Source: a virus
Strand: one strand, 5' to 3'
DNA: 15,531 nt
Virus genome (UHGV): UHGV-1641076
This document shows, piece after piece, positions 13,381 through 15,531 of this stretch (the first letter of the stretch is position 1; each line of letters starts with the position of its first letter). The notes under the pieces are model-generated. The model did no database searches. It was not told the DNA's origin and worked only from the letters and a program-made list of their open reading frames with translations. A program made the translations under genes and the position numbers.

Positions 13381-13557
13381 TGTTCATTCCACGGCCAAAA
13401 ACAGAGAAAGGAAACGACAAAGGCCCAAAAGTTCGTTTTCAGCACCTGTCGTTTCCTTTCTTTTCAGGGGGTATTTTAAATAAAAACATTAAGTTACGAC
13501 AAAGAAGAACGGAAACGCCTTAAACCGGAAAATTTTCATAAATAGCGAAAACCCGCG
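13381..13557 (-). promoter_or_regulatory. cosB terminase-binding region: three Nu1-binding R elements (approx R1 13403..13420, R2 13445..13460, R3 13504..13519) and an AT-rich IHF-type site (approx 13461..13503)
   Basis: Three copies of the GGAAACG / CGTTTCC core (R2 inverted relative to R1 and R3), with lambda-like spacing between cosN and Nu1. The reverse complement of this stretch matches my recall of the lambda left end, with a few substitutions. Confidence 0.75.
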
Positions 13558-13569
13558 AGGTCGCCGCCC
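13558..13569 (-). other. cosN: the 12-nt cohesive-end sequence GGGCGGCGACCT (reverse complement of plus-strand aggtcgccgccc)
   Basis: Exact match to the lambda cohesive end. It is flanked by ...GTTACG on the lysis side and CGCGGGTTTTCGCTATTTATGAAAATTTTCC on the Nu1 side. Confidence 0.9.
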
Positions 13570-13822
13570 CGTAACGGCCCGGATCGCCGGAAAGGACCCG
13601 CAAAAATGATAATGGTTATCATTTTCAATGTAGTCCAGTTTCTTCCACCATCGCACCGGACAGGCGACTATGAGGGGACAACGCCGCGCTCCGTTAACGC
13701 GGTAAACCCCGGTGTGTATCGTTTTTGATTATCCCCGCACACTCGCGCAGAGGAGTCTCCCTGTCGGGCTGCGGTCTCTGTTAATGAGGGAATACAGCGA
13801 CGATACGGCGCATCAACAAAAC

Positions 13823-14296
13823 TTATTTCAGGCACTGAGTGCGGATATAGTCCTGTGCCCCTTCCAGTTGCTTGTGCATCGTCATCAGCCGCTCTCTGAG
13901 GGTGAAATAATCCCGTGTAACGGTGTCTGCCAGTTGGGGGCCGGTTGCATTATCCACGCCGGAGGTGGTGGGGGCTTCACGCACGGAGCCTGGACAGGTG
14001 GCGTTGATCCGCAGGCGCTTACGACCAGCGGCAACATCAGCGCGCAGAGTTTCATTTTCAGCTCTCGCATCGGATAATTCCCTCGAGTATTTTGCATCGA
14101 GCGCAGCAACATCGCGCTGGCGCACCTGCATATCAGTAATGGTTGCGTTCGCCAGCTTCAGTTCACTGGCTTTGTTATCGCGCTGCGCTTTGTAGGTAAT
14201 CGCGTTATCACGGTAATGGTCTGTTGCCATCCACAGCGCACCACAGGCCACCAGCAGAATAACGATAAACGCGGAAAGCATTCGGTTTATGTTCAC
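13823..14296 (-). CDS. Rz: Rz i-spanin (inner-membrane spanin subunit); start is either the GTG at 14296 (157 aa) or the ATG at 14281 (152 aa)
   Basis: N-terminal TMD ([16 protein letters not shown]) followed by ...[16 protein letters not shown]...[24 protein letters not shown]..., clearly similar to lambda Rz. The GTG at 14296 overlaps the stop of the upstream small ORF (GTGA), suggesting translational coupling. Confidence 0.88.
13885..14070 (-). CDS. Rz1: Rz1 o-spanin (outer-membrane lipoprotein), embedded in the +1 frame of Rz (about 61 aa)
   Basis: Embedded [64 protein letters not shown]. It has a lipobox (LVVSAC, or VSAC) and a proline-rich stretch, and resembles lambda Rz1. The start is assigned to the internal ATG at 14070. 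Confidence 0.85.
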
Positions 14297-14424
14297 CCCA
14301 GCAACCCCGACGAAGACAACATCATCCAGGCCATGGAAAGAAAAAGAGCAACCAGCATTAGTGAAAATGAAATGCCGACAATTACACAGAGGATCTTCGC
14401 CAGCGTTATGAGTTTGTCTGACAT
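14293..14424 (-). CDS. Small hydrophobic protein (43 aa, one predicted TMD), function unknown
   Basis: ATG at 14424 preceded by a strong Shine-Dalgarno (AAGGGAGGA, 6-nt spacer). Product [43 protein letters not shown]: a short positively charged N-terminus, then about 25 hydrophobic residues. The stop overlaps the Rz GTG start. Confidence 0.6.
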
Positions 14425-14438
14425 GCTTAATCCTCCCT

Positions 14439-14621
14439 TCACGATTTCAACGCAATGACCAGTTTTGCCAGCCCATACAGCATCGGGGACACAGCAACAC
14501 CGACCGCCACCCACTTAATGGCAAAAGCCAGTGCTCTGCTGATGTCATCAGTTACAGGCGCTTTCAGTTCAAGGCCATTTTTCATAGTCAACCTCAACAG
14601 AATTCGTTTATACTTCGCCAT
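14439..14621 (-). CDS. Small membrane protein (60 aa from the ATG at 14621, or 48 aa from the ATG at 14585), function unknown
   Basis: Product [60 protein letters not shown]. The second ATG has a GAGG 6 nt upstream. There is one Gly/Ala-rich hydrophobic segment. Its stop codon TGA lies inside the Shine-Dalgarno of the next small gene. The track's upstream start at 14654 is a GTG inside the terminator hairpin and is unlikely. Confidence 0.55.
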
Positions 14622-14654: not shown

Positions 14655-14697
14655 AAAACCCCGCTTGGTGCCAACAAACGGGGTTTTTACTTTTATT
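14655..14697. terminator. Intrinsic-terminator-like hairpin, potentially bidirectional, between the endolysin gene and the small ORFs
   Basis: Stem AAAACCCCG (14655..14663) paired with CGGGGTTTT (14679..14687), with a loop containing the palindrome TTGGTGCCAA. On the plus strand it is followed by TTTTTACTTTTATT; on the minus strand by UUUUGUGUUU. Confidence 0.6.
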
Positions 14698-14777: not shown

Positions 14778-15311
14778 TTATCTGTCGATTCCCCAGCACG
14801 CCAGCGCGCTCTCCTGGTCACGACGGGATACCTGACCATAACAGTTATTTGAGCGGATACGGCAGTCTCTGCCACCGTCCTTAATCCACCAGCGAATCGC
14901 CTCACACGCTCCCCTGCGGTCACCAGCATTCAGCCGCTTATAAAACGTCGACGGGAAACACTTACCGGGGCCAATGTTATAGGGACAGAATGACGCTATA
15001 CCCGCTTTCTGTGGTTCGGTCAGTGGAACTTTAATATTGCGCTCCACCCATGCCAGCGCCTTATCCCGTTCAATGGCATTAACCTGGTCGCATTTTTCCT
15101 TCGACAGTTTCATGCCCGGAATAACAGGTTTACCATCCACCATTGTGGCACCGCGGCAGATGGTCCAGATACCCGCACCATCACGGTATGCCGTTGTGTG
15201 GTTACCTTCTTTTTCATCCAGAAACTGGTCGAGAATATCAGGCGCAGGCGCACCGATGGCAATCAACGCCAGAACGGCAGCCGACAGGCCATATTTGATT
15301 TTGGTGTTCAT
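14778..15311 (-). CDS. R: SAR endolysin, T4-lysozyme-like (GH24) muramidase, 177 aa
   Basis: The N-terminus MNTKIKYGLSAAVLALIAIGAPAP is a weakly hydrophobic Gly/Ala-rich signal-anchor-release type segment. It is followed by EGNHTTAYRDGAGIWT, i.e. the E-x8-D-x5-T catalytic triad spacing of T4 lysozyme. The gene sits upstream of Rz/Rz1. Confidence 0.85.
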   Translation of the reverse strand: MNTKIKYGLSAAVLALIAIGAPAPDILDQFLDEKEGNHTTAYRDGAGIWTICRGATMVDGKPVIPGMKLSKEKCDQVNAIERDKALAWVERNIKVPLTEPQKAGIASFCPYNIGPGKCFPSTFYKRLNAGDRRGACEAIRWWIKDGGRDCRIRSNNCYGQVSRRDQESALACWGIDR

Positions 15312-15367
15312 GGATATTTATCAGGATTTATCGGTTCCGAATCCCTGGATATGTTAAATCTTCAGCC

Positions 15368-15394
15368 CGCCAGCGGTAGGACACTGGCGTTTTT
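15368..15394 (+). terminator. Plus-strand-oriented terminator-like hairpin in the non-coding stretch between the endolysin and IS1
   Basis: Stem CGCCAG (15368..15373) paired with CTGGCG (15384..15389), a 10-nt loop, then TTTTT (15390..15394). On the minus strand it is preceded by an A-tract instead, so it is oriented for plus-strand transcripts. Confidence 0.4.
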
Positions 15395-15476
15395 CCTGAT
15401 GGCTGAAATATATCTGACAATTTCAGTAGAGGATTAACCATGCATAACGATCAACATAATTATGATTTATGCCTGC

Positions 15477-15531
15477 GGTGATGCTGCCAACTTACTGATT
15501 TAGTGTATGATGGTGTTTTTGAGGTGCTCCA
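15477..15531 (+). mobile_element. IS1 insertion sequence, left terminal inverted repeat and first about 55 bp; the element continues beyond the window
   Basis: GGTGATGCTGCCAACTTACTGATTTAGTGTATGATGGTGTTTTTGAGGTGCTCCA matches my recall of the IS1 left end (terminal IR GGTGATGCTGCCAACTTACTGAT, followed by the lead-in to insA). insA would start just past the window edge on the plus strand. Confidence 0.85.

Follow-up and report, generated by a model that had tools for sequence, protein, structure and literature searches.

The window, by which we mean the whole stretch of 15,531 nt that was analysed, is the minus-strand late region of a lambdoid prophage. Its endolysin gene, R, is followed by two small ORFs (orf60 and orf43), by the spanin genes Rz and Rz1 and, past Rz, by Nu1, terminase, portal, and head and tail genes (Table 1). 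Compared with intact relatives, none of the 18 proteins examined from this operon is shortened; they comprise R, orf60, orf43, Rz and 14 proteins of packaging, head and tail. Upstream of R there is no P21-family holin (PF04971) within the window, which stops 55 nt into an IS1 element.

Table 1. Features of the lysis region, with positions in the window
Feature	Position	Strand	Basis
R, 177-aa SAR endolysin (GH24 / T4-lysozyme-like muramidase, 933W R / RrrQ type)	14778..15311	-	PF00959
SAR (signal-anchor-release) domain of R, codons 1-26, MNTKIK + YGLSAAVLALIAIGAPAP	15234..15311	-	sequence features
Catalytic triad codons of R, E35, D44, T50 (E-x8-D-x5-T)	15162..15209	-	regex match at residue 35
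Native R leader, no ORF, no SD; last ~15-20 nt (…TCCTGATAAATATCC) homologous to ydfR/DUF1327 3' end	15312..15476	-	stops, SD energy, alignment
First 37 nt (12 codons, MHNDQHNYDLCL) of reverse 104-aa ORF (orf6 of Stx2 phage 86; WP_000551290.1), truncated by IS1	15440..15476	+	
Promoter-like site across IS1 junction, -35 TTGGCA in IS1, 17-nt spacer, -10 AATCAT in flank	15462..15490	-	consensus scan 9/12
IS1 left end (IRL + transposase 5' UTR), transposase reading away from R; window ends here	15477..15531	+	R100 match
Terminator-like hairpin + T-rich tail between R and orf60	14655..14687	-	13-pair stem, 6 GC pairs
orf60, 60 aa, C-terminal TMD, strong SD (-8.4), function unknown	14439..14621	-	PHROG 1115
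orf43, 43 aa, single TMD, strong SD (-11.3), function unknown	14293..14424	-	PHROG 4906
Rz i-spanin, 157 aa from GTG (relatives: 152 aa from ATG 14281)	13823..14296	-	PF03245 E=7e-47
Rz1 o-spanin lipoprotein, embedded in Rz (+1 frame)	13885..14070	-	PF06085 E=7e-20

An earlier note, made from the sequence alone, had described R as an endolysin with a SAR N-terminus and the catalytic triad of T4 lysozyme, and all elements of this description are present. R matches PF00959 (Phage_lysozyme) at E=2.8e-25, with 89.5 bits against a Pfam cutoff of 22.3, and falls into PHROG 7 (endolysin, 1.5e-63). Its triad, E35-x8-D44-x5-T50, is in register with the E/D/T of phage 21 R (PDB 3hde, E=3e-16). SAR endolysins are recognised by two to three basic residues ahead of a weakly hydrophobic TMD with a high share of Gly, Ala, Ser and Thr (Young laboratory, PMC9239132). 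Indeed, the N-terminus of R carries two basic residues (K4 and K6) and then the 18-residue, weakly hydrophobic segment YGLSAAVLALIAIGAPAP, of which 50% is Gly/Ala/Ser/Thr (61% in the equivalent segment of 933W R). The anchor has a 17-mer Kyte-Doolittle maximum of 1.9 and contains no Cys, and the SAR region equals that of R21 in length and register. Together, these features give good support to the assignment of R as a predicted GH24 muramidase with an N-terminal SAR anchor.

R is 93% identical to 933W R, from which it differs in the anchor region by A19I and S22P, and 933W R has been employed experimentally as the 'phage 933W SAR endolysin' (PMC9239132). This identity lends indirect support to the membrane tethering and release that would be expected of the R allele in the window. 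The protein is 100% identical to WP_001092910.1 (O104:H4, UPEC 26-1), its ORF is intact, and the exact sequence is indexed in 2,430 collection blocks. In surveys of Stx phages, the lysis genes are described as encoding predicted R21-like SAR endolysins along with P21 S-family pinholins (PMC8136144, PMC10462455).

Between R and orf60, a strong terminator-like hairpin lies inside the late operon, where presumably only the Q-modified polymerase reads through it. A 17-codon ORF after R was considered as a remnant of ant and was rejected, as the N-termini differ. Further downstream, Rz is 100% identical to the copy at another locus (L001), and Rz1 was called as 61 aa in a contig identical to the window (L036). 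The spacer from Rz to Nu1 (13381-13822) is only ~440 nt long. Its counterpart in the O104:H4/UPEC relatives measures ~1.2 kb and accommodates a 46-aa ORF as well as a YlcI/YnfO gene. In the window, packaging and head genes match a different prophage mosaic (best whole-window identity 96-97%), which points to a recombination joint within the Rz-to-Nu1 spacer.

On the other side of R, the 165 bp upstream of the gene are free of ORFs on the minus strand, as had been stated, since all three frames contain stops. On the plus strand, which the first reading had overlooked, the leader holds the 37-nt start (ATG at 15440) of a reverse ORF that encodes 104 aa when complete. This ORF, orf6, belongs to PHROG 1853, a family of unknown function, and has no match in Pfam, NCBIfam or PADLOC. 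In relatives it runs antisense to the late operon that surrounds it, with DUF1327 on one side and R on the other, in the manner of a lysogen-expressed moron.

The presence of an IS1 end beside the leader was likewise borne out: the last 55 nt of the window are identical (55/55) to those that lead directly into the transposase CDS of IS1 on plasmid R100. Complete E. coli genomes match the window region at 99.8-100% identity, with each match ending exactly at 15476, and IS1-free relatives diverge exactly at 15476/15477. IS1 at this site was not found in any complete E. coli genome searched, and the IS1/leader junction has no match in complete E. coli genomes, species-representative genomes, IMG/VR or JGI metagenomes. 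One draft contig, DABSRL010000063.1 (GCA_014583145.1), matches the window at 100% identity across 15,473 nt and stops 3 nt short of the IS1 junction. A rare S49-protease variant that characterises the window lineage occurs in just seven contigs, all of them 10-50-kb drafts; exact-protein look-ups of TerL and the portal led instead to thousands of unrelated prophage mosaics. All seven contigs break at IS1, so assemblies of the window lineage break at this multi-copy repeat. The 55-nt IS1 stub looks like an assembler k-mer overlap, and the right edge of the window like a contig end at a collapsed repeat. The IS1 insertion, 37 nt into orf6 and 165 nt upstream of R, is the sole local novelty and is confined to one lineage.

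The IS1-free relatives show what natively lies upstream of the leader. In UPEC 26-1 and O104:H4 2011C-3493, the upstream order is SASA esterase, a 71-aa class II holin, DUF1327/YdfR, the reverse 104-aa ORF and the lysozyme; DUF1327/YdfR starts 4 nt past the holin stop, and the gap between the reverse ORF and the lysozyme is 128 nt. The holin matches PF04971 ('Bacteriophage P21 holin S') at E=9e-33 and shares 99% identity with 933W S. An exact-string check of 13 relatives placed the S start exactly 1,479 nt before the R ATG in 12 of them, with a gap of 1,263 nt between the S stop and that ATG; the remaining one (L006) gave no string match but has a called PF04971 holin of 71 aa at these coordinates. 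The comparison with IS1-free relatives that the earlier note had proposed therefore gives the same order, S, DUF1327, reverse 104-aa ORF and R, in all those that share the leader.

This arrangement is widespread. An exact-protein look-up of R led to ten independent places, every one with the same S-DUF1327-reverse ORF-R module, and the full interval from S to R is common to 53 complete genomes. The S-DUF1327-R layout also occurs at four loci from unrelated look-ups (L028-L031). More broadly, matches with the layout holin, YdfR/DUF1327, lysozyme are found in ~3,300 of 5,426 complete genomes, BL21(DE3) and HS among them. Phage PhiR12_1, recorded with E. coli K-12 MG1655 as its host, has a close variant of the phage 86 layout, and related PhiR phages have been used in plaque assays. 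In PhiR5_2, as in 933W, S ends 4 nt before R, and homology to the window starts exactly at the R ATG.

These observations correct the premise that a pinholin should sit immediately upstream of such an endolysin: in thousands of E. coli prophages and in phage genomes deposited as complete isolates, S and R are natively set apart by DUF1327/ydfR, with or without the reverse ORF. Separation of the predicted S and R by accessory genes is thus a native and common state of the module and is not caused by IS1; because relatives with S apart from R are widespread, the absent adjacent holin is not IS1 damage. The same holds for the weak ribosome-binding site, because the leader that lacks a Shine-Dalgarno sequence (SD) is base-identical in phage genomes with native S-R separation. 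The two anomalies are hence real as descriptions of the window, but both are native in IS1-free relatives. Of the three explanations offered earlier, namely a holin beyond IS1, its loss through IS1-mediated rearrangement, or lysis timing by downstream small membrane proteins, the comparison of gene orders favours the first.

The lysis cassette of 933W (S, R, ant, Rz/Rz1) resembles the module in R (93%), in the S of the relatives (99% to 933W S) and in its embedded Rz/Rz1 spanins. In 933W, however, the S stop lies 4 nt before the R ATG and a strong SD for R (-8.5) lies inside S, whereas the R leader in the window lacks an SD, S natively stands 1.26 kb upstream of R, and orf60/orf43 replace ant. 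The Stx2-converting phage 86 (AB255436) has the order s-orf5-orf6-r. Its 165-nt leader and R N-terminus are identical to those of the window, and the order and spacing of S, DUF1327 (268 aa), the reverse 104-aa orf6 and R are those of the window's relatives. Phage 86 differs in having no IS1, in carrying ant in place of orf60/orf43 and in its packaging module.

Two further systems share parts of the design. The Qin-type layout of E. coli prophages, with class II holin (essQ), ydfR and rrrQ in K-12 gene names, has the same endolysin family, the SD-less ATAAATATC-ATGA junction, and DUF1327/ydfR between holin and endolysin. In that layout, the stop codon of ydfR and the R start codon overlap, which provides translational coupling, whereas in the cassette of the window the reverse ORF intervenes and coupling is lost. 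Phage 21 S21/R21 has in common a PF04971 holin (present in the relatives), a PF00959 endolysin, the E35/D44/T50 register and a Cys-free SAR domain. The similarity to R21 is distant (E=3e-16), though, and the 165-aa genes of RrrD/R21 type directly adjoin S.

We therefore consider it very probable that R, Rz and Rz1 are part of a standard lambdoid pinholin-SAR-endolysin cassette of the 933W/Qin rrrQ type, heading an intact late operon. As judged from gene content, the module in IS1-free relatives consists of S (a predicted pinholin), DUF1327, the reverse ORF, R, optional small ORFs or ant, and Rz/Rz1. The SAR endolysin, which is the usual one of lambdoid prophages of the Shiga-toxin type, and the layout of the cassette are already known, and the IS1 insertion is lineage-specific. 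Upon induction, RNA polymerase modified by Q would transcribe S, R, Rz and the structural genes from pR'. R would be exported by Sec, and its SAR domain would hold it in the inner membrane in an inactive form until depolarisation triggered by S released and activated it; Rz/Rz1 would then disrupt the outer membrane.

In the window lineage, IS1 is probably a simple insertion, with S collinear beyond it. The right end of IS1 (…AAGTTGGAGTCATTACC) would then join TATGCCTGC and the remainder of orf6 (nt 38 onward), followed by DUF1327 and S, so that S would lie ~2.3 kb upstream of R. Lysis would need antiterminated read-through of the 768-bp IS1, antisense to its transposase. From general lambda biology, the Q-modified polymerase would be expected to read through IS1. 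If read-through failed, the whole downstream late operon would be silenced, lysis and morphogenesis alike. With IS1 upstream of the entire late operon, one polar insertion could thus decide lysis and particle production of an otherwise intact prophage. A promoter-like site that spans the IS1 junction and points toward R might, more speculatively, transcribe R as far as the hairpin downstream of it in an uninduced lysogen, if it is active. Fusion promoters formed by IS1 have been documented (PMC9330008).

A possible but doubtful alternative to simple insertion is that an adjacent deletion or inversion mediated by IS1 removed or relocated S, DUF1327 and pR'/Q, leaving a defective remnant of R, Rz and structural genes bounded by IS1. 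IS1 is known to generate such adjacent deletions and inversions (PMC9330008). Only a single IS1 end is visible in the window, hence neither the second inverted repeat nor the 8-9-bp target duplication of a simple insertion can be checked there, and the breaks of all seven lineage contigs at IS1 suggest a genome with multiple IS1 copies, in which recombination between IS elements is plausible. Against this, the flank on the R side is 100% identical to IS1-free relatives up to the junction and the 18 downstream genes are all intact, which suggests a recent event, and a deletion would require a second event after the insertion. None of these points is decisive.

The remaining suggestion, that lysis is timed by the small membrane proteins downstream of R in the manner of phage Mu, fared less well. 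The pair is of interest in itself: orf60 and orf43 have the strongest SDs of the lysis region, and they are kept together between R and Rz in phages of the PhiR series and in ~640 E. coli genomes. Neither has a Pfam match at E<=0.01, including DUF2730 (PF10805), nor any in NCBIfam or PADLOC. A role in a defence system was likewise rejected for orf60, orf43, orf6 and DUF1327, as they have no PADLOC match. We regard it as unlikely that the two jointly modulate the timing of lysis by targeting the SAR endolysin or the pinholin in an antiholin-like or releasin-like way. If they did modulate lysis, they might sustain it in the IS1-interrupted lineage even after loss of S.

Very unlikely, in our view, is the stronger proposal that lysis is independent of a holin and timed by orf60/orf43 as a releasin like Mu gp25 or as a novel holin. 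What speaks for it is that both are small proteins with a single TMD and strong SDs, placed between R and Rz, and that the short cytoplasmic tail of R carries two Lys. The holin-less gp22/gp25 system of Mu likewise comprises a SAR endolysin with lysines in a short cytoplasmic tail; in Mu gp22, two such lysines confer dependence on the releasin, and the gp25 family is defined by DUF2730 (PMC9239132). The window, in contrast to Mu, has no DUF2730 protein, orf60 and orf43 falling outside this and every other Pfam, NCBIfam and PADLOC family, and its relatives encode a holin. Indeed, orf60 and orf43 occur together with S in PhiR12_1 and PhiR5_2, ant takes their place in 933W and phage 86, and a prophage with an identical R (L013) has neither. 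Being replaced or missing in holin-bearing relatives, orf60 and orf43 are dispensable accessories of a holin-containing cassette.

The R ATG at 15311 lacks a recognisable SD, in agreement with the earlier description: with an anti-SD duplex energy of +0.6 kcal/mol it ranks last among 20 starts in the window, where the remaining 19 range from -0.2 to -11.3 kcal/mol. Among 19 genes, no other start region (-30 to +30) has as little structure (-3.1 kcal/mol) or as high an AU content (68%), which is compatible with SD-independent initiation. The leader is identical at 165 of 165 positions in UPEC 26-1 and Stx2 phage 86 and is base-identical in O104:H4 as well, and the upstream 30-40 nt and the SD energy of +0.6 are the same in relatives having the leader of R. 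Across alleles, the energy follows the N-terminus encoded. Alleles beginning 'MSRKL…' (933W, PhiR5_2) come directly after S and have a strong SD (-8.5 kcal/mol) within the S 3' end, whereas all eight 'MN…' alleles lie between 0.6 and 1.2. The 'MNTKI…' alleles all share the SD-less ATAAATATCC-ATGA junction; in general form it reads ATAAATATC(C/T)-ATGA, with energies of +0.6 to +1.2, whatever DNA stands further upstream. The R gene is thus found in two initiation contexts with a recombination breakpoint exactly at the ATG, one with an SD inside S and one with the ydfR-derived ATGA (L015, L027, L029).

Other prophages suggest an origin for the second context. At two loci (L029 and L031), a 103-aa YdfR ends in …HHKYL* and its TGA overlaps the R ATG, and the last ~15-20 bases of the leader align to the coding 3' end of ydfR at these ATGA junctions. 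Given this overlap of the R start by a homologous ydfR stop, the ATAAATATCC-ATGA junction looks like a relic of translational coupling. In the leader of the window, the frame ending at the R ATGA has no start codon, and no upstream ORF is left for coupling. On the simplest reading of these alignments, the SD-less start would have evolved under translational coupling to ydfR and persisted after insertion of the reverse-ORF cassette. That the uncoupled leader permits adequate translation is suggested by its occurrence in sequenced phage isolates. About 2,400 genomes have R plus at least the final 10-45 nt of the leader, with recombination breakpoints at about -10, -25, -44, -70 and -77.

The SD energy of R, the lowest-ranking in the window, might be taken as a sign that the gene is decaying and poorly expressed in a degenerating prophage. 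We consider this extremely improbable, since R stands behind an identical leader in sequenced phage isolates, the ORF is intact with its exact protein in so many collection blocks, and the open, AU-rich start fits SD-independent initiation. As a matter of annotation hygiene, 'no adjacent holin' and 'no SD' are poor signs of decay for endolysins of the RrrQ/933W type; both traits are native to the widespread S-DUF1327-(reverse ORF)-R module and should not be taken as such.

A cis-regulatory RNA in the leader was also considered and rejected, the fold z-score being -1.0 with no Rfam match at the gathering score. The leader does contain a stable hairpin, CGCCAG-N10-CTGGCG (15368-15394), of which PhiR12_1 has a version with substitutions. 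In the window, TTTTT follows this hairpin on the plus strand, so that it could terminate antisense transcripts just upstream of the start of the reverse ORF.
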